This document shows positions 1 to 15,487 of a DNA stretch of 32,000 nucleotides, piece after piece. The notes under the pieces were generated by a model that made no database searches, was not told the origin of the DNA, and saw nothing but the letters and a program-made list of their open reading frames with translations. This DNA comes from Candidatus Iainarchaeum sp. (GTDB lineage: Archaea; Iainarchaeota; Iainarchaeia; Iainarchaeales; CSSED10-239). Position 1 is the stretch's first letter; each line of letters begins with the position of its first letter. Made by a program: the position numbers and the translations under genes. The stretch covers positions 66,020 to 98,019 of the forward strand of contig JBBISB010000002.1 of assembly GCA_037441475.1 (NCBI GenBank). The letters run 5' to 3'.

Positions 1-1204
1 AATCAGTGTGAAGAATAAAAGCAAAGTCAAGAAGAGTGGATTTTTTTGGAATAACCATCTCTTGGTTTGTTTGGGTGTAGACAACTATGTAGTCTATATA
101 GGAGACATCTTTTGGTTTTGTAAGCATATTATTTTCTTTTAAGAAATTTATTAAACGAGAGTCCTTTTCTGAAAATTCAATGTTTTTATAGTGGAAATGA
201 GCAGAAACACCAAACTCAGCATTGTTATGCATATCAATGGTTCTTATCTGTATCTCAAAAGGATAACCATTAAGCATTATATTAAGATGTATTGACTGAT
301 AACCATTTTCCTTAGGATACTTTATAAAATCTCTTATCTTTACATCCTTGTTTTCAATAACCTCAAAGTTATCTTTAATAGCTTGAAGAGCTTTATAACA
401 TTCCTTTCTTGAATTGTAGATAAGTCTTAAAGCATAGATATCAAGAACCTCTAAAAGATGATTCTTTTCTTTCCTTATAAAGATCTTTTGATAAAGACTG
501 CCTGGGCTTTTGTATCTGTAATTGTAGGTTACTGGTTTATGTCCTTTATTTTTTAAAAAATTAATAACAGTTTCTTTTAAAGTATTTAATTTTTCTACAG
601 GATATTTTTTAGTTACTTCTTTATAGGTTTTATTAAAACTTTCTTTATACTTTAAAGCCATTAATTTTTCTAAAAACTCCTCTTTGAAGTTTTGCATACC
701 TAACTGGTAGGCTAAAGGAAAGATAGCTTGTTCAATAACATCTAAAAATCTTGTTTTAAATTTTTCATCTTTAATTTTAGGAAAATAATCTAAGATAACT
801 AAAGCTTCACCAAAAAGAAGAATAACAGCCTCTATCTTAAAGAAAGATTGAACAATCATTTTTTTTATTTTCTTAGGAGGGATATCATAGTTGTGTATTA
901 AATCATAAAAGTTTATAAAATAATAATCTTTAGATATCTTTCTTATAATCTTAGGAAAACCTGCACTCTTAATGTTTATTTCATATTTATAAGGGTTGTA
1001 AAGAACAGCAGTGATTATTATGTTTTCATCATAAACATTTAGTTTTTTTGCAATAGCTAAAGAATACTCTATTAAAGGGATGTTTTTGAAAACATACTCA
1101 GAAGAATAATTGTTTTTAGAGATAGAGTAGGCTTTCTTAATATTTGAAGTGTACTCTTTTATAAGAGATGAATATTCTTTTAAAAAACTTTTTTTAATAA
1201 CCAT
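1..1204 (-). CDS. RelA/SpoT homolog, a (p)ppGpp synthetase of the long form. It has a degenerate N-terminal HD region, an intact synthetase domain and the start of a TGS domain. The 3' end runs off the left edge.
   Basis: Absent from the supplied ORF track because there is no stop inside the window. My translation of the minus strand from ATG (1204..1202) stays open down to position 2. Synthetase motifs RxKxxxSxxxK, YxSxH and EIQIRT..MH..AE are present: YRYKSPGSLYQKI, DIYALRLI, ENGYQSIHLNI, PFEIQIRTIDMHNNAEFGVSAHFHYK. A TGS-like stretch follows: VVYTQTNQEMVIPKKSTLLDFAFILHTD. The expected HD-hydrolase positions read IPLIEY and VLYN instead of HP and HD. Confidence 0.85.
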   Translation of the reverse strand, partial: MVIKKSFLKEYSSLIKEYTSNIKKAYSISKNNYSSEYVFKNIPLIEYSLAIAKKLNVYDENIIITAVLYNPYKYEINIKSAGFPKIIRKISKDYYFINFYDLIHNYDIPPKKIKKMIVQSFFKIEAVILLFGEALVILDYFPKIKDEKFKTRFLDVIEQAIFPLAYQLGMQNFKEEFLEKLMALKYKESFNKTYKEVTKKYPVEKLNTLKETVINFLKNKGHKPVTYNYRYKSPGSLYQKIFIRKEKNHLLEVLDIYALRLIYNSRKECYKALQAIKDNFEVIENKDVKIRDFIKYPKENGYQSIHLNIMLNGYPFEIQIRTIDMHNNAEFGVSAHFHYKNIEFSEKDSRLINFLKENNMLTKPKDVSYIDYIVVYTQTNQEMVIPKKSTLLDFAFILHTD

Positions 1205-4259: not shown

Positions 4260-5075
4260 CTACTTAACTCTTTCAACAAAAAGATAAACATCAGGAAGAT
4301 CAGGGGTTCTTTTCTTATACTCTAAAGGAAGATATGAAAAATCTGCTCTAAAACCTCTTTTTTCAAGACCACTAATAACTTGTGATCTATGCTCTTTACC
4401 CATACTTGTCTTTAATAGAAAAGTATTGAAACTAAAGATAGCAAGACCACCTTTGTTTAAGGAATAAAGATACTTAAGTAAAACCTCTCTTTGTAAAGAG
4501 GTCTGTGTGTAATGAAAACCACCATAAACAGAAAGAATTAAATCATATTTTCTTTCTGGCATGAAATTTAAGACATTACCTATTTTCTTAAAATCAATAT
4601 TTTTTGCAACCACACTTCTAGTTAAAGAAACTGCTGTTGTTTTTAGATCAGCAGAAACTAATTTTCTTTCTTTTAAAGAATTCCATTTTTCTTTAAGTTC
4701 TGATAAAAAAGTGCCTTTTCCAGCACCATCATCTAAAACATTTATTTCTTTTTTTTTATATTTTCTTTCAAAAGCACTTAAAGTAGATATAATATCTCTT
4801 TTAAAAACAGAGCTATTTTCTAATATACTACTGGTTATTATTTTTTTAAAAATAAAATTATAATCATCATATTTTCTATTTAAGATGTATCTTCCAGACT
4901 TATCACTTTCTTTTAATTTCTTTTCAGAAACTTTTAATCTTGCTAGAATATCTTTATCTTTTAGTTTTTTAAAAATTAGATCTTTTTGTAAAGACACCAT
5001 ACCATTTGCTTTTTCTTTAAGAGAAACCGGTTTCTTTGAAAATTTAGTTAATTTAGAAGGAGTTTTTTTAACCAT
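4260..5075 (-). CDS. Class I SAM-dependent methyltransferase of unknown substrate, downstream member of a tandem paralog pair
   Basis: 271 aa. Motif I is VLDDGAGKGTFL, with post-I and later motifs DLILSVYGGFHY and LNKGGLAIFSF. It aligns along its whole length with 5068..5853 (KEKANGMVSLQKDLI vs KEKPNGMVALQKELI). Its start overlaps the upstream stop by 8 nt. Confidence 0.7.
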   Translation of the reverse strand: MVKKTPSKLTKFSKKPVSLKEKANGMVSLQKDLIFKKLKDKDILARLKVSEKKLKESDKSGRYILNRKYDDYNFIFKKIITSSILENSSVFKRDIISTLSAFERKYKKKEINVLDDGAGKGTFLSELKEKWNSLKERKLVSADLKTTAVSLTRSVVAKNIDFKKIGNVLNFMPERKYDLILSVYGGFHYTQTSLQREVLLKYLYSLNKGGLAIFSFNTFLLKTSMGKEHRSQVISGLEKRGFRADFSYLPLEYKKRTPDLPDVYLFVERVK

Positions 5076-5853
5076 CTAAGAATAACTTTACCCTCTCAAT
5101 AACCAAATAATTACTAGGCAGTTTTTCAAAAATATTTTTTTTTATACTCATTAAATCTGCTTTAAAACCTCTTTTTTCAAAAGCATTCTGAATAGATGTT
5201 ATCTTTGGAGGAAGAGTATATTCAATACCAAAGATTCCCACACCACCTTTGTTTAAAGCATAACAATATTTAAGTAAAACTTCTTTTTGTAATTCTGGAA
5301 TAGTATACTCAAAACCACCAAAAACAGAAATAATCAGATCATATTTTTTTGTAGGCAAAAAATTAGCGACATTTCCTCTTTTTATTTCATCAATATTTTT
5401 TGAAATAATTGTTTTTGAACTTAATGTAACTGCAGTAGTTTTTAAAGAAGCCTTAACTTTTCCTTCTTTTTTTAGTGCATTCCATTTTTCTTTAAGTTCA
5501 GCTAAAAAATAACCTTTTCCTGCACCATCATCTAATAAACTTATTTTCTTCTTTTTGTGCCTATATGCCATTACTCTTAAAGTATGTACTACATCTCTTT
5601 TTAAAATTTTATGAGAAGAAAATAATCTATTAAAAATAGTATTATAACTTGCATAATTTCTATCAAGAACATACCCTGAAGTCCTGTTCTTTGAACGATT
5701 ATAAGCTTCTTGCTCAAAATAAGAATATCTTATTTTATCTTGTTTTAATTTTTTTTTAATAAGTTCTTTTTGTAAAGCAACCATGCCGTTTGGTTTTTCT
5801 TTAGATGAATTTACGTTAAAAAAATTACTTACTTTAGAAAATAATTTTTTCAT
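5068..5853 (-). CDS. Class I SAM-dependent methyltransferase of unknown substrate, upstream member of a tandem paralog pair
   Basis: 261 aa. Motif I is LLDDGAGKGYFL, followed by DLIISVFGGFEY and LNKGGVGIFG. It is a paralog of 4260..5075. Confidence 0.7.
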   Translation of the reverse strand: MKKLFSKVSNFFNVNSSKEKPNGMVALQKELIKKKLKQDKIRYSYFEQEAYNRSKNRTSGYVLDRNYASYNTIFNRLFSSHKILKRDVVHTLRVMAYRHKKKKISLLDDGAGKGYFLAELKEKWNALKKEGKVKASLKTTAVTLSSKTIISKNIDEIKRGNVANFLPTKKYDLIISVFGGFEYTIPELQKEVLLKYCYALNKGGVGIFGIEYTLPPKITSIQNAFEKRGFKADLMSIKKNIFEKLPSNYLVIERVKLFLDG

Positions 5854-5879: not shown

Positions 5880-6662
5880 TTATTCTCCACCAAATATATT
5901 TGCCATAGCATCATAGCTTGCTCTAAACCTTGAATAAAGTTCATTAAAGTTATTTAGCATAGTTGCATTCAATCTTCCTTCAATACCAGAAACAGAATCG
6001 TTTAAAGAAATATTAAAATCTTGAACTTCTTGATTTAAGTTATATATTTCAGTCATAACATTGTTATCAATGTATGTTTGGATACCATAAACCCTCATGT
6101 CAACAGAATTAATCTGTGCCCTTACATTTGCATCCAAGGCATTTATCTTAGCAACTAAATCATCATACTGTGCTCTCTGTGATTGAGACATTTCAACAAT
6201 TAAGTTAAGACCAGGAGAAACATGGAAGGAATAAGAGATGTTTAAGGTTCTTGGAGTATTGTTTCTTACAACAGTACATCTTATATGCTCTTCATATATA
6301 CCAGGAGTTTGAGGGGTTATAAAGGCATGATAGTAGTTACCAGGAATTGTGGTTGGAATCATTGGAACATCTATTAAAAAGAAAGACTTATCAGGGAAAA
6401 GAAGAGAAAGAATACAGTTTGCATCTGTAATAGGCACACTTCTTGAATCTTCTAAACGAACAATTACTTGTCCTTGCTCACCAGAGATATACTCTGTTCC
6501 AGATACCATTCTAATACCAGGTTCTGCAGTTTTTTCTCTTATAAAGAATATTAAAAAAATAATTAAGCCAATAACTAATAAAGCTATGACTATGTAAAGG
6601 ATAGTTCTTTTATTTAAACTAGAAAATGAACTAAAATTATGATGTCTGAAACCTTTTTCCAT
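5880..6662 (-). CDS. N-terminally membrane-anchored surface protein, short paralog of 6753..8993
   Basis: 260 aa with one N-terminal TM helix (ILYIVIALLVIGLIIFLIFFI). The following domain (QVIVRLEDSRSVPITDANCILSLLFPDKSFFLIDVPMIPTTIPGNYYHAFITPQTPGIYEEHIRC) aligns with STIVRLSDYKGNPYPIDECKVTILYPDKTVFVNNQPMAPSNIAGNWYRTDYLGSAPLGTYEQEVTC of the neighbouring gene. The C-terminal part is helical and N/D/Q-rich. Confidence 0.6.
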   Translation of the reverse strand: MEKGFRHHNFSSFSSLNKRTILYIVIALLVIGLIIFLIFFIREKTAEPGIRMVSGTEYISGEQGQVIVRLEDSRSVPITDANCILSLLFPDKSFFLIDVPMIPTTIPGNYYHAFITPQTPGIYEEHIRCTVVRNNTPRTLNISYSFHVSPGLNLIVEMSQSQRAQYDDLVAKINALDANVRAQINSVDMRVYGIQTYIDNNVMTEIYNLNQEVQDFNISLNDSVSGIEGRLNATMLNNFNELYSRFRASYDAMANIFGGE

Positions 6663-6696
6663 TGTTTTACTCTTTTTTATTTTTTTATAAAAAAAT

Positions 6697-6717
6697 AAAA
6701 GAAAGCTTCTTTCTTTT
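6697..6717. terminator. Perfect 9-bp stem, 3-nt loop hairpin in a T/A-run context between the two surface-protein paralogs
   Basis: aaaagaaag-ctt-ctttctttt. The two arms are exact reverse complements. The hairpin lies 36 nt downstream of the 6753 stop (minus strand) and 35 nt upstream of the 6662 start. Confidence 0.4.
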
Positions 6718-6752
6718 AAAGAAAGAAACTTGTTATAACATTTTTAAAAAAT

Positions 6753-8993
6753 CTAAGAAATTATTCTTATATGTATTTCAGATTCTTGATTTTCTAAAAT
6801 CTTGTGAACAGTTGCATTGATGTCTGTTGTTTGTGCTTTAATGATACCAATATCTGTTAAAAGAGAATCAATCTTTGTTGTTATATCTCCACTTAAAAGA
6901 TTCCATGTGTTAAGTGTAGTTTGATTAATTTCTTCTATCTTTTGTGCATGTGTTGTATCCATAATAGCTACTGCTGTCTTAATGTTGTATACTTCTTGAC
7001 ATAATGGGCTATTATTTGTATCTTGATTTCCACAAAAGTTTTCAACTAATGCAAGGTTGTTATCAACAGATGTAAATCTATTTCTGATCTCTTGCATGTC
7101 TTCTTGGTTAATTGCATTTGAAACAAGCCATGTGGTGTCTGCTTTAACAGCATCTAACTGTGAAGTTAAGTTAGCTAAAAGTTCATCCATTTGAACATCT
7201 ATGTTTCCAATAACTAAACTTGTAATTAAGTTAGATAATGACTCATTAACATCTGTTATCTGTGTTTGGATAGTTTGACCTGTTGAAACTATTGTTCCGT
7301 TTACAGAAACCTCTAAGTTATTAAGTCTTGAAGCTAAAAACTCATTTGAATCCATGAAGCTTTGTGCAATCAATGCATTTGTGTTATTAAATTGATTTGT
7401 AATCTCACTTGCTAAATTAACATTAACAGTGTTTAAAAGATTTGTTAAAGAGGTTGTAGAGGTATTGATTTTTGTATTAATTGATTCTCCAGTCTCTGTA
7501 ACTGTTGCTGTTAATGATAAACTAACATTTGTAAGTTGAGATGAAAGTTCAGCAAATTTCAAATCTATTTTGGTTGAAAGATCATTGTTAACTGTGTTTA
7601 AAAGATTTGTTAAAGAGGTGGTGGAAGCAGTGATGTTTGTATTAATCTCTTCTCCTGTCTCTTCTAATTTAGCATTTAAATTAAGTTCTAAGTTTGTTAA
7701 AACACCAAATAACTCTTCAAACTTAAGATCTATTTTACTTGAAAGATCATTGTTAACTGTGTTTAAAAGATTTGTTAAAGAGGTAGTAGAAGAAGTGATG
7801 TTTGTATTAATCTCTTCTCCTGTTTCTTCAAGTTTAGCATTTAAACTTATATTAACATTTGATAAGTTTGTTTGAGAGGTGTTAAAGTCAGATGCAAGTT
7901 GACTTAATAAATCAGCATTAACTGTATTTAAAAGGTTTGTTAAGTTTGTTGTAGAGGTTGTAATATTTGTATTTATTGTCTCTCCAGTAGAAATAACAGT
8001 ACCTGTTAAGTTAAGGCTTACATCATTTAAGTTTGCTGAAACTGCATTGAAATCTGTTTGAAGTTGATCTAAGATACTAGCATTTACAGAACCTAAAAGA
8101 TTTGTTAAGTTTGTGTTTGTGTTTGTTATATTTGTATTAATTGTTTCTCCTGTTGTTAAAACAGTAGCTGTTAAGTTTAAACTTACATCATTTAAATTTG
8201 CATTTAAAGAATTAAAGTCAGTTGATAATTGATTTAAAAGACCGTTATTAATGTTTGTTAAAAGACCAGATAAGTTTGTATTAACATTTGTTAAACTTGT
8301 CTGTATTGCTTCTCCAGTTGCTGCAACTGTTCCTGTAACAGAAACATTAACATTTGTTAAGTCTGTCTGAAGTGTTGAAACACCTTCTTGTAATTGAGAA
8401 GAAAGTCTTCCATTAACATCGTTTAATAAATCGTTTAAAGAAGTATTCATGTTTGTTATATTTGTTGTAATTGTCTCACCAGTAGATGCAAGTTGACCTG
8501 TAACTGTAACATTAACATCTGCAAGTTTTAAGTCTAAGTTATCAGACTTGTTTGTTAAAACACTTATTTGTTCAAGTGCTGGATTTAAGTGGAAGGATTG
8601 TGAACTTTTAACCTCATTTGCCCCTCTTTTACAAGTTACTTCTTGTTCATAAGTTCCAAGAGGGGCTGATCCTAAATAATCTGTTCTATACCAGTTACCT
8701 GCTATGTTAGAAGGTGCCATTGGCTGGTTGTTTACAAAAACAGTTTTGTCTGGGTAAAGAATTGTTACTTTACATTCATCTATAGGGTATGGATTTCCCT
8801 TATAATCAGATAATCTTACAATAGTTGAACCATAATCATCTCTCCAGTATTCAGTGTGGGATACCCAAGAGAAGATTATTTCATTATCAACAACTGTTTT
8901 TCCATTAACATACGCTGTTGCTAAAAAAGCAATACCTATGAGAAGAATTCCTAGGACTGCTAATAATATTTTTGATTTTTTATTTTTTAACAT
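6753..8993 (-). CDS. Large N-anchored surface protein with a beta-rich membrane-proximal domain, about 8 tandem 55-aa helical repeats and a Cys-containing C-terminal region
   Basis: 746 aa with an N-terminal TM helix (ILLAVLGILLIGIAFLATAYV). The motif TGE[TAES]I.T.I...T.L..LL..VN recurs at aa 171, 226, 281, 336, 391, 446 and 501 (exact 55-aa spacing) and at 571. The protein is extremely N/T/S/L-rich, with many N-x-S/T sequons. Confidence 0.8.
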   Translation of the reverse strand: MLKNKKSKILLAVLGILLIGIAFLATAYVNGKTVVDNEIIFSWVSHTEYWRDDYGSTIVRLSDYKGNPYPIDECKVTILYPDKTVFVNNQPMAPSNIAGNWYRTDYLGSAPLGTYEQEVTCKRGANEVKSSQSFHLNPALEQISVLTNKSDNLDLKLADVNVTVTGQLASTGETITTNITNMNTSLNDLLNDVNGRLSSQLQEGVSTLQTDLTNVNVSVTGTVAATGEAIQTSLTNVNTNLSGLLTNINNGLLNQLSTDFNSLNANLNDVSLNLTATVLTTGETINTNITNTNTNLTNLLGSVNASILDQLQTDFNAVSANLNDVSLNLTGTVISTGETINTNITTSTTNLTNLLNTVNADLLSQLASDFNTSQTNLSNVNISLNAKLEETGEEINTNITSSTTSLTNLLNTVNNDLSSKIDLKFEELFGVLTNLELNLNAKLEETGEEINTNITASTTSLTNLLNTVNNDLSTKIDLKFAELSSQLTNVSLSLTATVTETGESINTKINTSTTSLTNLLNTVNVNLASEITNQFNNTNALIAQSFMDSNEFLASRLNNLEVSVNGTIVSTGQTIQTQITDVNESLSNLITSLVIGNIDVQMDELLANLTSQLDAVKADTTWLVSNAINQEDMQEIRNRFTSVDNNLALVENFCGNQDTNNSPLCQEVYNIKTAVAIMDTTHAQKIEEINQTTLNTWNLLSGDITTKIDSLLTDIGIIKAQTTDINATVHKILENQESEIHIRIIS
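7134..8531 (-). repeat. Tandem 165-bp (55-codon) intragenic repeats
   Basis: The period comes from the protein motif spacing. It is confirmed at DNA level: 7576..7685 and 7741..7850 are nearly identical (gaaagatcattgttaactgtgtttaaaagatttgttaaagaggt...). The plus-strand shadow ORF 7570..7875 shows the same 55-aa self-repeat. Confidence 0.85.
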
Positions 8994-9774: not shown

Positions 9775-10017
9775 TTATTTTACATGCACAGTTCTTGTAG
9801 GGAAGGCAAACTCAATCTTTGATTTTTCAAATTCTTTTTTAATTGAAAGATTTATTTTATCTTTAACTATTAGATATTCCTTATAATCAAGAGCTCTTAT
9901 CCAGTAGATGATTCTTATGTTTAAAGAAAAATCTCCAAAAGACTCAAAGACAACATGATAGCTATCTTTTTCTACATTTTCATTTGTATTTAAAATATTA
10001 ATTATTATTTTCTTACC
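9775..10017 (-). other. C-terminal cytoplasmic domain of the MscS channel. It is in the same reading frame as 10018..10842 but cut off by an in-frame TAA.
   Basis: My translation immediately after the TAA at 10020..10018 gives GKKIIINILNTNENVEKDSYHVVFESFGDFSLNIRIIYWIRALDYKEYLIVKDKINLSIKKEFEKSKIEFAFPTRTVHVK, ending at TAA 9777..9775. This is the typical MscS C-terminal pattern (F.dss.n..i.yW, I.F..P). 10018 minus 9775 is 243, which is 81 codons. Confidence 0.8.
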
Positions 10018-10842
10018 TTATTCTAATTTCTTAAGAGAAGTACTATAGATAACACCAATTGTGAAATTTTCTCTTTTTGCTCTTCTTGCAGAAATATTTT
10101 CAACAGCATTAAGAGAAAGGTTTCTGTTTGGAACAACAACTAAGGTGTTATCAAAGAATCTTATCTTTGTAGATCTTATACCAATTTCTTCTACAGTTCC
10201 AAGACCATCTGAGGTTTTTAAAGTATCACCCATCTTAAATGGTTTTTCAACAAATATAACAATTCCTGATATAAAATTTTCTAAAATATCCTTAGAAGCT
10301 AAGGCAACTGCAAGACCACCAATACCAATACCTGCAAGCAAAGCACTTATATTAAATCCAAAGTTTGAGAGAACAACAAGAATAGCTAGGATAAAAAATA
10401 CAACTTTAACTAAGGATTTAAGTAAAGGTATTAATTGGTCATCATACTTTGATTCTGTTTTTTGTGTATGAGGTATTAGGTACTCATCTATGATGTCTAA
10501 AAAAAACTTAATAATAAATAATGTGATTGCTAAGACATAAACAAAGAAAGAAGTGTTCTTAACAGCTGTTACCCACCATTCAGAAACAACTAAATATTTA
10601 AAACCAATGTTAAAGAAAATAGTCACAATTAATATCTTTAAAGGTAGAGGTTTTGATAGAATCTTAGAGATTATATCATCTATCTTGTTTCTTGTATGCT
10701 TTGTTATTTTATTTAAAACATTTTTACTTATAAAAACAACAACTGCACTTACAACAAACCCTAAAAGAATAAAAAATATAAACCACATGAAGTTTTTTAA
10801 GGGATTTTGTAGAAACACAAGATCAAGAATATTGAATAACAT
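10018..10842 (-). CDS. MscS-family small-conductance mechanosensitive channel, N-terminal and pore part, terminated prematurely by TAA
   Basis: 274 aa with several TM helices followed by GIGIGGLAVALASKDILENFISGIVIFVEKPFKMGDTL, the MscS pore-helix and beta-domain signature. The ORF ends inside the conserved region (IGVIYSTSLKKLE*). Confidence 0.85.
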   Translation of the reverse strand: MLFNILDLVFLQNPLKNFMWFIFFILLGFVVSAVVVFISKNVLNKITKHTRNKIDDIISKILSKPLPLKILIVTIFFNIGFKYLVVSEWWVTAVKNTSFFVYVLAITLFIIKFFLDIIDEYLIPHTQKTESKYDDQLIPLLKSLVKVVFFILAILVVLSNFGFNISALLAGIGIGGLAVALASKDILENFISGIVIFVEKPFKMGDTLKTSDGLGTVEEIGIRSTKIRFFDNTLVVVPNRNLSLNAVENISARRAKRENFTIGVIYSTSLKKLE

Positions 10843-11015
10843 TTTAATAACACCTTCTAAAATTTTTATTTATAATACAAAAAAAATAAATATATAAATA
10901 TATTATAAACCAAAATCTTTATATTTATATAGACATATAATATGTATGTAAAATTAACTTTAAGTTATTTACTTCTTTTTATAAATAAATTACAATTAAA
11001 TAAAAACGATTAAAC

Positions 11016-11726
11016 ATGATAGACAAACCAATAGTTGAACTTAAAAACGTCTCTAAGATATACAAGATGGGACTTGTTGAAGTAAAGGCAATAAACGATG
11101 TTTCCTTAAAAATATTTCCAAAAGAATTTGTTGCAATCATGGGAGCGTCTGGTTCTGGAAAATCAACAATGATGCATTTAATTGGTGCACTTGATCTTCC
11201 TACAAAAGGAGAGCTTTCTATTCATAAGCATAAACTTTTAAGCTTTACAGAAGATGAACTTGCATCCTTAAGAGGAAAAACCATTAGTTTTGTTTTTCAA
11301 GACTTTCATTTAATACCTACCCTTACAGCTTTTGAAAATGTTAGACTTCCTATACTCTTCCAAACAAACGAAGATGATGAAGAAACATACAACAGAAGAT
11401 GTGAAGAACTTTTAGATGTTGTTGGTTTAAAAGATAGAATGGACCATAGGCCAGCTGAACTTTCAGGTGGTCAACAACAAAGAGTTGCAATTGCAAGAGC
11501 ACTTGCAAATGATCCTGAAATTATTTTAGGAGATGAACCTACAGGAGCCCTTGACTCTAAGTCCTCTGCTGAGATTATTCAACTTTTAAAAAAACTAAAT
11601 AAATCTGGAAAAACAATAATCATTATTACACATGATATTAATGTTGCAAAAAATGCAAAAAGAATAATTACTTTAAAAGATGGAAAAATAATTGAAGATA
11701 AAATAAACAAACAAGAAAACCCTTAA
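11016..11726 (+). CDS. ABC transporter ATP-binding protein, MacB/LolD-like subfamily
   Basis: Walker A GASGSGKST, Q-loop FVFQDF, signature LSGGQQQRVAIARAL, Walker B IILGDEPTGALD, H-loop ITHD. Confidence 0.92.
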   Translation: MIDKPIVELKNVSKIYKMGLVEVKAINDVSLKIFPKEFVAIMGASGSGKSTMMHLIGALDLPTKGELSIHKHKLLSFTEDELASLRGKTISFVFQDFHLIPTLTAFENVRLPILFQTNEDDEETYNRRCEELLDVVGLKDRMDHRPAELSGGQQQRVAIARALANDPEIILGDEPTGALDSKSSAEIIQLLKKLNKSGKTIIIITHDINVAKNAKRIITLKDGKIIEDKINKQENP

Positions 11727-11738
11727 GAAAAAGAAAAC

Positions 11739-12929
11739 ATGAAAAAACTAATTCCCTTTGTTATCTCAAACCTTAAAAGAAGGAAACTTAGAAGTTACTT
11801 AACAATCATAGGTATAATCGTAGGAGTTGTTGCTATCGTCTCTTTAATATCTTTGTCTGAAGGTCTTAAGAGTGGAGTTAGTCAAGAGTTTTCAAAAACA
11901 GGGGCACAGAAAATAACAGTTTCTTCAAAGTATGCACAAACCATACAAGGCTCCTCCTTTCCATTAACTGAAGATGAGGTTAAAGAGATTGAAAAACTGC
12001 CCTCCATTAACTTTGCAACCGGTTACCTTAATACCAGGGCCTCTATTGAGTTTAATAGAAGTAAAAAATTTGCAAGTGTTAGTGCATATGAAACAGATGT
12101 CTATAAAGAGATACTACTTCAAGAAGGAAAAGAAATATTTAGAGGAAAAATAATCACAGATGACAAGGCAAAAGAAATTGTTATTGGTTATGATTTGTTT
12201 AACAGTGATGAATTTTTTGGAAAAACAGTTAAGCTCGGAGATACAGTTGAAATATCAAACCAGAAATTTAAGGTGGTTGGAGTATTAAACGACTCTGGAA
12301 ATAAGAATGCTGATAGAGCAATCTATATGTCAATGGATAACCTTAGAGAGATATCAAATATCAAAGATAAGGAAGTTGATGTTATTTATGCTGTTATTAA
12401 AGAAAATGCAGATATTGAAAAAACAGGGCTTGATATTGAAGCAAGACTTGAAAAATTTAGAAAAGTTGAAGACTTTGTTGTAACTACACCTGTTAAGGAA
12501 GCAGAGAGTAGAGAAGAAACATTAAAAGCAGTTTCAATTGTTGTGGTTGGAATTGCATCAATCTCTCTTTTGGTTGGAGGTATTGGGATACTTAACTCCA
12601 TGTACACCTCTGTTCTTGAAAGAAGAAGAGAGATTGGGATTATGAAGGCTATTGGTGCTAGAAGAGAGGATATCTTAAAAATATTCTTAATTGAAGCAGG
12701 AATAATTGGTTTGATTGGTGGTATTATTGGCACCATAGGTGGTTTTTTAATAGCTTTTATAGTAAATACCATAGGAAAGTTTACAGGAACAGAAATATCA
12801 GCTTCCTTTGATCCAACCATTGTTTTAATTGCTCTTAGCTTTTCATTCTTGTTAGGCCTTTTAGCTGGTTTTCTTCCAGCATACCAAGCATCTAAACAAC
12901 AAGCAATTGATTCTTTAAGAGAGGAATAA
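11739..12929 (+). CDS. ABC transporter permease, MacB-periplasmic-core plus FtsX-type
   Basis: 396 aa. It has an N-terminal TM helix, a large extracytoplasmic domain, then SVLERRREIGIMKAIGARREDIL and three C-terminal TM helices (FtsX/MacB topology). It starts 12 nt after the ATPase gene. Confidence 0.85.
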   Translation: MKKLIPFVISNLKRRKLRSYLTIIGIIVGVVAIVSLISLSEGLKSGVSQEFSKTGAQKITVSSKYAQTIQGSSFPLTEDEVKEIEKLPSINFATGYLNTRASIEFNRSKKFASVSAYETDVYKEILLQEGKEIFRGKIITDDKAKEIVIGYDLFNSDEFFGKTVKLGDTVEISNQKFKVVGVLNDSGNKNADRAIYMSMDNLREISNIKDKEVDVIYAVIKENADIEKTGLDIEARLEKFRKVEDFVVTTPVKEAESREETLKAVSIVVVGIASISLLVGGIGILNSMYTSVLERRREIGIMKAIGARREDILKIFLIEAGIIGLIGGIIGTIGGFLIAFIVNTIGKFTGTEISASFDPTIVLIALSFSFLLGLLAGFLPAYQASKQQAIDSLREE

Positions 12930-12964
12930 AAAAAAATTATAATTTTAAAAGAAAAGGTGAAAAT

Positions 12965-13081
12965 ATGAACTTAAACAAAATAATAATAGTTATTGCATTG
13001 TTAATGGTTATGATAATACCAGTTAATGCTGCAACAACAAACTATGACATCATAAACTTAAATGCAGATAGATACATATAA
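12965..13081 (+). other. Signal-peptide-encoding 5' fragment that appears to belong to 13062..14210 but lies in another frame
   Basis: AAGGTGA Shine-Dalgarno-like motif (12954..12960) sits 4 nt before ATG 12965. The translation is MNLNKIIIVIALLMVMIIPVNAATTNYDIINLNADRYI*, a classic signal peptide with a VNA|A site. It overlaps the downstream ORF, which is offset by +1 and has a TAA immediately before its ATG at 13062. Confidence 0.65.
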
Positions 13082-14210
13082 CTACAACCCAACACCTGTA
13101 ATCTCAGGAGAGGAGTTTGAGATATGGATACAACTTACAAACAAAAGTAATGTTGCTGCTGATAATATAGAATATTTTTTAGAAACAGCATACCCTTTCA
13201 TTTTAATATCTGAAAATGAAGGGAAGATTTCAAAGCTTGAGGGCTTTCAATCAAAGATAATAAAATACAAATTAAAAACAAACAACGATGTTTTAACAGG
13301 AACATACGATCTTGAGTTTAGGTATAAAAGAGAGGGTATTAGTATTTACAATATTAAAAAATACACTATAGACATTAAAGGTAAATCAGCTATACTTGAG
13401 ATTGTTTCATCTAATGTCTTAGAAGCAAGTATTGGAGATGATTCAACTGTTCTTTTAAACCTTAAAAACTTAGGACAAAAAGACTCTAAGGATATCTTCA
13501 TAACACTCGGAGACTCTGCAGACCAAACAATTAAGGTTATTGGTCTTAAGACACAATATCTTGAGAGAATAAATATTGGACAAGAAACAAACGTTTCATT
13601 CATGATTAGTGTTTCAAAAAACGTTACTGAAACAAGCTACACTCTTCCAATAACTATTGAATATTCAGATATTGATAGAGATTATAAGGTTACAAGAAAC
13701 ATAGGAATAAAGCTTAATGATCAGCCAAAAATGATTTTAAGTGTTATTGGTGTTGGAGATGACTTTAAAATAAAACCAAACAGTAAAGAAACAATCACAA
13801 TTGAGATTTACAATGTTGGTAATGTTGATACTGAGATATCATATGTAACTATTGAAGGAAGCGGTATTAACTCAACAAAGGACTTTATAGGTTCTATTGA
13901 AAGAGATAATTACGATAAGATAGATGTTGTTTTAAACACTAAAGACATTAAAGAAAAAGAAACAGAAATTACTGTTACTCTTTTCTATAAGGACAACAAC
14001 CTTAAGGAACAAAAGATAACACAAACAGTTAGTGTACAAACAGATTTTTCTGCAAATGGAAAGAATGCAAATAAAGCTGTAATGTCTGTTCTTGGTATAC
14101 TTGGTTTTATCTTAGGCCTTGCAGTATTTATTCTTCTTGCAAGATGGCTTATTAAGATATTAATAAAACCTGCATACCATGCTGTTGTTGGAATATTTAA
14201 GAGAAAATAA
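13062..14210 (+). CDS. COG1361/CARDB-like cell-surface protein with a C-terminal TM anchor. The N-terminus is probably lost by a frameshift.
   Basis: 382 aa of repeated beta-sandwich-like modules (YNPTPVISGEEFEIWIQLTNKSNVAADNIEY, ITIEIYNVGNVDTEISYVTIEG). The C-terminal TM helix plus basic tail is VMSVLGILGFILGLAVFILLARWLIK. The ORF as called has no signal peptide. Confidence 0.7.
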   Translation: MQIDTYNYNPTPVISGEEFEIWIQLTNKSNVAADNIEYFLETAYPFILISENEGKISKLEGFQSKIIKYKLKTNNDVLTGTYDLEFRYKREGISIYNIKKYTIDIKGKSAILEIVSSNVLEASIGDDSTVLLNLKNLGQKDSKDIFITLGDSADQTIKVIGLKTQYLERINIGQETNVSFMISVSKNVTETSYTLPITIEYSDIDRDYKVTRNIGIKLNDQPKMILSVIGVGDDFKIKPNSKETITIEIYNVGNVDTEISYVTIEGSGINSTKDFIGSIERDNYDKIDVVLNTKDIKEKETEITVTLFYKDNNLKEQKITQTVSVQTDFSANGKNANKAVMSVLGILGFILGLAVFILLARWLIKILIKPAYHAVVGIFKRK

Positions 14211-14266
14211 ATTTTTTATTTTCTTTTTTTTTATTTTATAAAAAATATAAAAATAATAATTTACAC

Positions 14267-15487
14267 ATGAACACAGAAAAATACAAGCACCTTATAGATT
14301 TAACATTTAAAAATATTCTAAGAAGACTTAGATCAATTTTAACAATCATAGCTGTAGTGATTGGAATTGCAACCATTGTTGCCTTGTTTTTAATAAGTGA
14401 TGGACTACTTAACTATGTTGAAGATGTTTTTATGACAATGGGGATAAACACTATTTTCATTTTTCCAGTAAGCTTTCAAGGTGGGGCAAACCAAACTATT
14501 AGTAGGGTTTCTGAGGATATTAAGATAACGCAAAGTGATCTCCGGCTTATTGAAAAAATACCTGAAATAGATTATGCAATTGGTTTTTCTTTCAGAACAG
14601 CAAAGTATGAGTATAAGGGGGAAGAGAGTTATCAGTTTGTGATAATGGTTGACCCTAAGCTTGCAGATAAAACCTTTGAAATAATGGATATAGGGGTAAG
14701 GGAAGGAAAGAGCCTTCAAGGAAGAGAAGGGGCAGAAATTGTTGTTGGTTCATACTTTGCAGATAAACTTTTTAAAGAACCTATTAAGGTTGGACAAAAA
14801 ATAAAAATTCAAGATAAAGAGTTTAAGGTAATTGGTATTTTAGAACCTGTTGAAAATATGCAAGATGACTCTCAAGCGTATATAACCATGAACAGTGGAA
14901 GAGAACTTTTTGATACTGGAGAAACCTTAGATCAGATTTATGCAAGTGTAAAGCCTGAGTATGATCCTTTAGTTGTTCAAAAAGAGATTGAAAAAAGACT
15001 TGAAAAGAAACATGGTAAAAATAAATTTTTTATAATAACAGCAAAACAAGTTTTAACAATGATAAAAACTGTATTAGGTCTTTTACAAACCATTTTAGTC
15101 TCAATCGGGCTTATATCCATTGTTGTTGGAAGTATTGGTATCATGAACTCAATATATACATCAGTTATTGAGAGGACAAGGGAGATTGGTATCTTAAAAT
15201 CATTAGGGGCTAAAAAAGAAGATATTTATTTTATATTTACCTTTGAGTCTTTAGTGTTATCTTTAATTGGTGGAATCATTGGTTTGGGGCTTGGTATTGG
15301 AATTGCTAAGTTTGTGGAGTATTATGCAGCAAGCCAAGCCTTTATTACCCTTAATATAATAGTAACATGGCAAGTTGTGGCTCTTGCTTTAGGAGTATCC
15401 ATTATTGTTGGAATTGCAGCTGGACTTTTACCTTCAAAATCAGCAGCAAAGATGAATGTCGTGGATGCTTTAAGAAAAACTATTTAA
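14267..15487 (+). CDS. Second ABC transporter permease, MacB/FtsX-type
   Basis: 406 aa with the same architecture as 11739..12929. It contains SVIERTREIGILKSLGAKKEDIY followed by three TM helices. Confidence 0.85.
   Translation: MNTEKYKHLIDLTFKNILRRLRSILTIIAVVIGIATIVALFLISDGLLNYVEDVFMTMGINTIFIFPVSFQGGANQTISRVSEDIKITQSDLRLIEKIPEIDYAIGFSFRTAKYEYKGEESYQFVIMVDPKLADKTFEIMDIGVREGKSLQGREGAEIVVGSYFADKLFKEPIKVGQKIKIQDKEFKVIGILEPVENMQDDSQAYITMNSGRELFDTGETLDQIYASVKPEYDPLVVQKEIEKRLEKKHGKNKFFIITAKQVLTMIKTVLGLLQTILVSIGLISIVVGSIGIMNSIYTSVIERTREIGILKSLGAKKEDIYFIFTFESLVLSLIGGIIGLGLGIGIAKFVEYYAASQAFITLNIIVTWQVVALALGVSIIVGIAAGLLPSKSAAKMNVVDALRKTI

Follow-up and report, generated by a model that had tools for sequence, protein, structure and literature searches.

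The stretch of DNA analysed here, referred to as the window, comprises 32,000 nucleotides (nt) from Candidatus Iainarchaeum sp. (GenBank assembly GCA_037441475.1, contig JBBISB010000002.1, positions 66,020 to 98,019 of the forward strand) and contains two adjacent paralogous genes on its reverse strand, a long one encoding a repeat protein of 746 amino acids (aa) and a short one encoding a protein of 260 aa. The source genome (769 kb in two contigs, 89.5% complete) belongs to the DPANN archaea, in agreement with the small-genome archaeon supposed in a first-pass annotation of the same DNA, which had described the long product as a candidate surface stalk. The features of the pair are as follows.

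6753..8993, reverse strand: coding sequence of the long subunit (P0001), an intact open reading frame (ORF) of 746 aa
8913..8969, reverse strand: N-terminal hydrophobic helix, aa 9–27, interpreted as a signal-anchor that keeps the N-terminus inside
8559..8903, reverse strand: immunoglobulin (Ig)-like beta-sandwich N-domain, aa 31–145, predicted to be membrane-proximal, with C74 and C121 invariant
7404..8558, reverse strand: repeat units U1–U7, aa 146–530, in exact 55-aa (165-nt) register
7899..8228, reverse strand: duplicated pair U3 and U4, whose counterpart is unit 3 of the 6-unit relative P0002
7569..7898, reverse strand: duplicated pair U5 and U6, whose counterpart is unit 4 of P0002, including a 92%-identical 110-nt stretch
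7161..7403, reverse strand: degenerate unit 8 with a conserved 15-aa insertion, and linker, aa 531–611
6756..7160, reverse strand: conserved helical C-terminal domain (C-domain), aa 612–746, with helices predicted by AlphaFold2 (AF2) on both sides of a Cys loop
6999..7034, reverse strand: Cys654–Cys665 loop with the conserved sequon N660-x-S662 at the inter-helix turn, a candidate distal tip
6663..6752, reverse strand: spacer between the two genes, containing an inverted repeat, a run of T and a TATA-like box rich in A/T, read from the sequence and presumptive in function
5880..6662, reverse strand: short paralogue of 260 aa, made up of an anchor, an Ig-like domain of the same kind that has both Cys, and a helical tail (about 100 aa)

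The array of the long protein is strictly periodic over most of its length. The TGE motif stands at aa 171, 226, 281, 336, 391, 446 and 501, a spacing of exactly 55, with a degenerate eighth copy at aa 571, 70 residues past the seventh, and Tandem Repeats Finder returned a 165-nt period (scores 378–405); the seven units in exact register among about eight repeats described in the first-pass annotation are thus borne out, the eighth being degenerate. That annotation had also counted five N-x-S/T sequons in the unit at aa 329–383, which are present at positions 343, 350, 371, 376 and 381, and had noted near-identical DNA in two adjacent units: 7576..7685 and 7741..7850 indeed share 92% identity over 110 nt, the longest uninterrupted match being 46 nt, and over whole units the nt identity is 75% for U5/U6, 73% for U3/U4 and 50–65% for other pairs.

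Homologues of the long type form 42–45 clusters (90% identity) among 5.8 billion protein clusters, some from sources labelled Woesearchaeota or Aenigmarchaeota and none with a functional name. When the spacer between the N- and C-domains was compared across 68 protein clusters, it fell into discrete length classes.

Spacer 10–29 aa, about 0 units: 6 clusters, with N- and C-domains adjacent
Spacer 111–142 aa, about 2 units: 15 clusters
Spacer 230–245 aa, about 4 units: 29 clusters
Spacer 343–361 aa, about 6 units: 12 clusters
Spacer 466 aa, 8 units: the gene at 6753..8993
Spacer 576 aa, about 10 units: two genomes of the same genus

Outside these classes are 3 of the 68 clusters, one with a spacer of 46 aa, one with a spacer of 277 aa and one that is a fragment. 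Within the source genus, long proteins of 404, 636, 746 and 854/864 aa correspond to about 2, 6, 8 and 10 units, and this comparison among related genomes supports the repeat expansion and contraction suggested earlier from the DNA of the array. A tree of the concatenated end domains contains many changes of unit number and places the 8-unit gene as sister to a 6-unit protein, beside the 10-unit pair, with 6-unit proteins as outgroups.

Growth of the array in the source genus can be traced to two central units. Unit comparison and a unit tree trace U3 and U4, with aa identities of 69% and 82%, to unit 3 of P0002, and U5 and U6 to its unit 4, and the 10-unit proteins (G003/G004) carry three copies each of the u3-type and the u4-type. 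The ratio of u3-type to u4-type units is therefore 1:1 in P0002, 2:2 in the 746-aa protein and 3:3 in G003/G004. Paired duplicates have similar nt identities (73% and 75% in the 746-aa gene; 85% and 92% for the newest G003 pairs), indicating two duplications of similar age. Taken together, the even length classes and the paired central duplications suggest that the structural period of the array is two units (110 aa), with odd-numbered intermediates that appear to be short-lived.

The even-number rule, kept in about 65 of the 68 clusters, and the symmetric central growth are fitted best by an array that is folded back on itself, as an antiparallel hairpin or an up-and-down helix stack in which the chain returns at every second unit and the C-domain lies beside the Ig-like base. 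The array centre would then be the distal tip (hairpin), or the array would form a compact lateral bundle, with units added on both arms. Growth in the two units that flank the array centre, in equal numbers and at similar ages, agrees with such an arrangement, as do the zero-unit members with adjacent N- and C-domains, since insertion of a hairpin would keep any contact between the two domains, and an array self-similarity that is maximal at 110 aa. In bacterial chemoreceptor signalling domains, length classes arise by symmetric heptad insertions and deletions about a hairpin tip, and the arms of SMC and Rad50 proteins behave likewise. Insertions matched on either side of the centre, here in the two unit types at 1:1, 2:2 and 3:3, are common to these cases, but the known proteins, heptad coiled coils of the cytoplasm, have a defined tip and no homology to the archaeal array, in which a hairpin is hypothetical. 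The centre of the array has no distinct tip loop and the unit boundaries are all alike, the 4-unit class is patterned A-B-A-B (motif spacing 111) and not A-B-B-A, and slippage after a first duplication is favoured by mutation alone, which makes the 3:3 ratio weaker evidence than it might appear. We consider a folded-back array possible, if unlikely.

The repeats had been called helical in the first-pass annotation, a description that is favoured by 11-residue periodicity, a gapless apolipoprotein profile match and the near absence of proline, and contradicted by AF2, which gives strands plus a helix. For the 4-unit relative P0031, modelled from a 42-sequence alignment, the mean predicted local distance difference test (pLDDT) score was 79, with values of 81–92 over most of the array, and within each 55 aa strands took up about 28 residues, a helix 18 and a loop 8; the 746-aa protein gave the same strand-plus-helix pattern at pLDDT 37–58. 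Two of the five P0031 models dropped to a mean pLDDT of about 60. The predicted template modelling score was 0.27 for the 746-aa protein and 0.41 for P0031, so that AF2 offers no confident compact fold, which counts against a folded-back array. Within the unit, positions 15, 17 and 19 carry alternating hydrophobic residues, and in several relatives hydrophobic power is higher at a period of 2.2 than of 3.67. In each of the five 11-residue sub-repeats, hydrophobic residues occupy hendecad positions a and h throughout the units, with position 8 (6 of 7 units) as the one exception, self-similarity of the array peaks at all multiples of 11 (highest at 110, next at 55), and hydrophobic power at 3.67 residues is present in the array, as fits an 11/22-residue periodicity. 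In PDB sequences, the family profile aligned with apolipoprotein A-IV over 237 residues without a gap, covering the whole array (E 2.2e-13), and also matched ApoE (7e-6), ApoA-I (1e-5) and apolipophorin III (8e-4); the listed matches, which further include ATP synthase subunit b and designed helical bundles, are mostly helical. The apolipoprotein-like proteins fold as up-down helical bundles, a point in favour of a folded-back array. Mutual-information covariation across 264 units was limited to a slight excess at i+2, without a hairpin ladder, and Foldseek searches with both AF2 models (746-aa protein and P0031) against PDB and BFVD returned matches confined to the Ig-like domain and no structural analogue of the array. 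We place the odds between hendecad helices and an alpha + beta unit near even, slightly favouring the helices.

The apolipoprotein matches also bear on function, as amphipathic 11/22-residue helices on the symbiont surface might bind or extract membrane lipids taken from hosts. Cultivated DPANN archaea are lipid-dependent and, being unable to make membrane lipids, take them from their hosts; 110 aa equals five 22-residue repeats; the ApoA-IV alignment runs gapless over the array; and the Pfam family Apolipoprotein (PF01442) was matched by 39 of 42 family members with a best E-value of 4e-18. However, each individually scored member fell below the gathering cut-off (69.3 bits for P0001 against 90), and the match rests on a common periodicity that is a known source of convergent matches (PMC3695513). 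The proline-punctuated 22-residue repeats typical of PF01442 are absent, as the array (aa 146–611, 466 aa) contains neither Pro nor Cys, and the arrays of ten relatives hold 7 Pro in 2640 residues. With 17% Asn, 17% Thr and 45 D+E against 11 K+R, the array has an acidic, Asn/Thr/Ser-rich polar face unlike that of Lys/Glu class A helices, and AF2 does not render it as helices. Compared with the exchangeable apolipoproteins (PF01442; ApoA-IV, PDB 3S84 and 9HX4), the archaeal protein has the same kind of amphipathic 11/22-residue periodicity over hundreds of residues but is membrane-anchored, ends in an Ig-like domain and a Cys loop, and differs in the Asn/Thr-rich acidic polar face and the missing proline punctuation; the resemblance is most likely convergent. 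Lipid binding as the function of the array seems to us highly doubtful, and more doubtful still is its extended form, in which the long and short proteins would be a lipid-capture device of a lipid-auxotrophic symbiont, the Ig-held array taking host lipids with a capacity or reach tuned by 110-residue modules.

The two end domains are conserved around this variable middle. The N-domain (aa 31–145) is among the best conserved parts of the family (46–85% identity), with invariant SHTEYW, GNW, YEQ and SFH motifs in addition to C74 and C121, and its AF2 model is a beta-sandwich over aa 40–136 (pLDDT 80–93), which agrees with the beta-rich domain previously placed after the anchor. Foldseek matched it to filamin, Ig, MG and phage Ig-like domains with target-normalised TM-scores of 0.5–0.8, examples being filamin domain 4umg (0.61), small phage Ig-like proteins (0.7–0.8), Sap S-layer (surface-layer) domains and complement MG domains. 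In the C-domain, W622, F640, C654, T659, S662, C665, I725 and T728 are invariant, so that the Cys-bearing C-terminal end recognised in the first-pass annotation proves to be part of a conserved domain; its AF2 models (pLDDT 67–83 in the 746-aa protein, 61–85 in P0031) we read as an antiparallel helical hairpin with the Cys loop and N660-x-S662 at the turn. Across the family the four invariant Cys thus form two pairs, C74/C121 and C654/C665. Neither domain has a Pfam match, the N-domain even at E<=10 and the C-domain at loose E-value limits, and a PDB sequence search with both domain profiles returned only noise (E >= 0.1). On its own, the N-domain occurs in 275 representative clusters (E<=1e-3), mostly as an anchor followed by the N-domain and a variable tail. 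A few proteins of 600–1900 aa (among them P0064, P0097, P0138 and P0145) contain between two and four copies of it, either in tandem or dispersed; eight multi-copy proteins, including P0064 and P0097 but not P0138 or P0145, were scanned and contained no Pfam domain. The multi-copy proteins suggest a broader, undescribed family of surface domains.

Several features point to a location of the long protein outside the cell. The segment at aa 9–27 is its sole strongly hydrophobic one (mean Kyte-Doolittle value 2.8) and follows a Lys-rich N-terminus, so the single N-terminal anchor proposed earlier stands, with no second hydrophobic segment. Over 33 family sequences the N-terminal flank of this helix has 124 K+R against 15 D+E, and the 15 residues past it have 46 K+R against 61 D+E, which indicates an N-in/C-out topology. 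The proposal that the protein is saturated with sequons did not hold, as its 27 sequons are no excess over the 23.5 +/- 4 of self-shuffled sequences and their density results from a composition of 14% Asn and 14% Thr. Family-wide (33 members), 491 sequons against 370 expected do represent an excess, and the sites N161, N660 and N726 are conserved. A homologue of STT3/AglB in the genome (80 bits against a Pfam cut-off of 24.5) makes N-glycosylation of the 746-aa protein possible. An extracellular location is likely because of the positive-inside topology, the two invariant Cys pairs, the three conserved sequon sites and the STT3/AglB homologue.

When the whole protein and its individual parts were compared with Pfam, NCBIfam and PHROGs, nothing exceeded the curated cut-offs and no S-layer or pilin family was matched, consistent with the earlier statement that the architecture is not a recognised S-layer or pilin one. 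Homology to a viral or cytoplasmic repeat family, which the first-pass annotation had named as contrary to its proposal, was looked for by profile search, and only sub-threshold or periodicity-driven matches were found. Baculo_PEP_C (PF04513) was matched by 33 of the 42 family members, with 36.5 bits for P0001 against a cut-off of 38 and 42.9 for the relative P0006, which passes; this Pfam family is listed among those most prone to spurious coiled-coil-like overlaps (PMC3695513), and we rejected a viral origin as a composition artefact. The locus shows no viral context. ZorA (NCBIfam NF033914) was likewise set aside at 23.7 bits against a cut-off of 190, the aligned part being only the periodic tail region. 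Mce/MlaD proteins share an N-terminal membrane helix, a beta domain, a long helical extension and adjacent paralogues with the archaeal pair, and the PDB search gave a weak match to Mce1E (E 0.054); Pfam and fold searches found no MCE domain, and the beta domain is Ig-like (Ig, filamin and MG matches in Foldseek) and not an MCE barrel, and a relationship to Mce was rejected.

The long gene is consistently accompanied by the short paralogue. In the window the two products are related at a BLASTP E-value of 1e-23, the short one scores 75 bits to the N-domain hidden Markov model (HMM), and the intergenic spacer, as read from its sequence, places the TATA-like box about 25–30 nt upstream of the short gene's ATG. 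A short paralogue lies downstream of the long gene at 6 of 6 distant loci and in all seven related genomes in which the long gene is present, 10–150 nt past it or with one small ORF between. These paralogues (209–267 aa) have their own anchor, a two-Cys Ig-like domain (80–97 bits to the N-domain HMM at other loci) and a helical tail of about 100 aa, and no other conserved neighbour was found in the loci inspected. In the phylum scan the N-domain is present in 10 of 215 species genomes (E<=1e-5), concentrated in 2 of the 5 genera of the source organism's taxonomic family, and 8 of the 10 have two N-domain matches each. The long/short family is small and confined to DPANN archaea.

This distribution is relevant to a role of the pair in building the organism's own envelope, in which it would anchor or stalk an S-layer or glycocalyx and the unit number would set the width of the pseudo-periplasm, without any host contact. 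SlaB, the S-layer stalk of Sulfolobales, has a C-terminal membrane anchor, N-terminal beta-sandwich domains, a trimeric coiled coil and a partner, SlaA, as canopy; tetrabrachion of Staphylothermus is an 11-residue-periodic stalk with a C-terminal anchor, and both SlaB and tetrabrachion are heavily N-glycosylated. The long protein resembles SlaB in its combination of an anchor, a beta-sandwich and a long periodic region of helical type, its 11-residue periodicity is of the tetrabrachion type, and the conserved two-gene arrangement would suit such a role. However, its polarity is opposite to that of both C-terminally anchored proteins, with an N-terminal anchor and no second hydrophobic segment; no sequence or fold relationship to them or to any S-layer family was detected beyond generic Ig-like domains; nothing linked to the pair is a candidate for a canopy protein, the sole conserved neighbour of the long gene being its short paralogue; and with 10 of 215 phylum genomes and two of the five genera of the source organism's family, the distribution is too patchy for that of a core scaffold. 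A function in envelope building therefore appears improbable.

The best analogues are the Periscope proteins of bacteria, among them SasG/Aap, Rib and Sgo_0707 (PMC8201768); archaea are not mentioned in the Periscope paper (PMC8201768). Like them, the 746-aa protein is predicted to be surface-anchored and has tandem similar units with conserved domains outside the array, its repeat number varies among close relatives, and neighbouring units have similar DNA that could drive gain and loss. Unlike them, the archaeal family is anchored by an N-terminal membrane helix and not by a C-terminal wall anchor, its units are not a known globular domain, a rod shape is hypothetical for it, and its array changes nearly always by two units. 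We put a probability of roughly 0.5 on the reading that the long protein is an adjustable-length surface spacer or stalk, built with the short paralogue and projecting a Cys-loop head, in analogy to the Periscope proteins. The long protein would insert N-in/C-out by its one N-terminal helix, with a disulfide-pinned Ig-like domain at the membrane, followed by a proline-free, Asn/Thr-rich acidic array with an 11-residue amphipathic period, 55-aa sequence units and 110-aa structural modules. The conserved helical domain would be the head, its turn formed by a disulfide-closed loop with a sequon, and the length of the array would set the reach of the head from the membrane through the cell's own envelope toward a partner surface; a one-way helix of 466 residues would measure about 70 nm and a hairpin about half of that. 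Unequal recombination among similar units would alter the length, with selection retaining only even unit numbers and, in the source genus, equal counts of both central unit types. The short paralogue would probably pair with the long protein via the shared Ig-like base or the helical tail. Within this proposal we infer the rod shape, the oligomeric state, actual glycosylation and the binding target of the head.

Several points weigh against an adjustable spacer of this kind. A straight parallel rod alone leaves the pairing of units unexplained, and a straight long stalk is one of three geometries compatible with the even-number rule. The evidence on the unit fold is split between the strands plus helix of the AF2 models and the all-alpha hendecads suggested by profile and periodicity. 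DNA identity among repeats (50–75% over units, 92% over 110 nt, 85–92% for the newest G003 pairs) lies under typical Periscope values. Presence in 10 of 215 genomes means that the family is rare and patchy and hence does not belong to the core envelope of the phylum. In addition, cleavage as a signal peptide after A-x-A, just ahead of the conserved AY.NGK, is possible from the sequence of the N-terminal region.

Other genes of the window and of related loci provide further observations. Downstream of the pair lie two adjacent methyltransferase-like paralogues (4260–5853, reverse strand; 271 and 261 aa, 48% identical, with weak Pfam methyltransferase matches), which were rejected as part of the module, as distant genomes lack them beside the pair and the genes that the relative L001 carries at this position are unrelated to them. 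In L001 (688-kb contig), a 614-aa T2SSE/PilB-type secretion ATPase (10897–12741) directly follows the long/short pair; no such ATPase occupies that position in the window or the other loci inspected. The long-gene homologue of locus L019 (G010:C6:28401-29117), from a genome of the source organism's own family, has an in-frame TAA, with an open frame of 168 aa over the N-domain. An MscS-type channel gene of the window (9775–10842, reverse strand) likewise carries an in-frame TAA after residue 274, past which the frame stays open for another 80 codons, encodes a plausible MscS C-terminal domain and closes right before the next gene; this gene would be either a pseudogene or a case of read-through or a recoded stop, and the G010 copy may be disrupted or may share the same stop-codon oddity. 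A MacB-type ABC transporter cluster (11016–15487, forward strand) comprises an ATPase, two MacB_PCD/FtsX permeases and, between them, a 382-aa CARDB-domain protein, and is syntenic in L001, where the middle gene has no recognised domain. At the window edge (2–1204, reverse strand), a protein with a RelA/SpoT-type (p)ppGpp synthetase domain (PF04607, E 4e-29) is unusual in an archaeon.

The idea of a variable-length repeat stalk is known, whereas the quantisation by two units, the symmetric growth at the array centre and the conflicting evidence on the unit fold are new, and the family, both of its end domains and the gene pairing have been uncharacterised so far. Host attachment and exchange in DPANN archaea are largely unknown, and most of their surface proteins lack annotation; a conserved gene pair that provides two new end domains and a middle of tunable length is a concrete and clonable candidate for envelope spacing or host contact in these organisms. 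Paired gain and loss of units, symmetric about the array centre in the source genus, represents a strong structural constraint recovered from sequence alone, and if the array is an elongated rod, the family would be an archaeal counterpart to the bacterial Periscope proteins.

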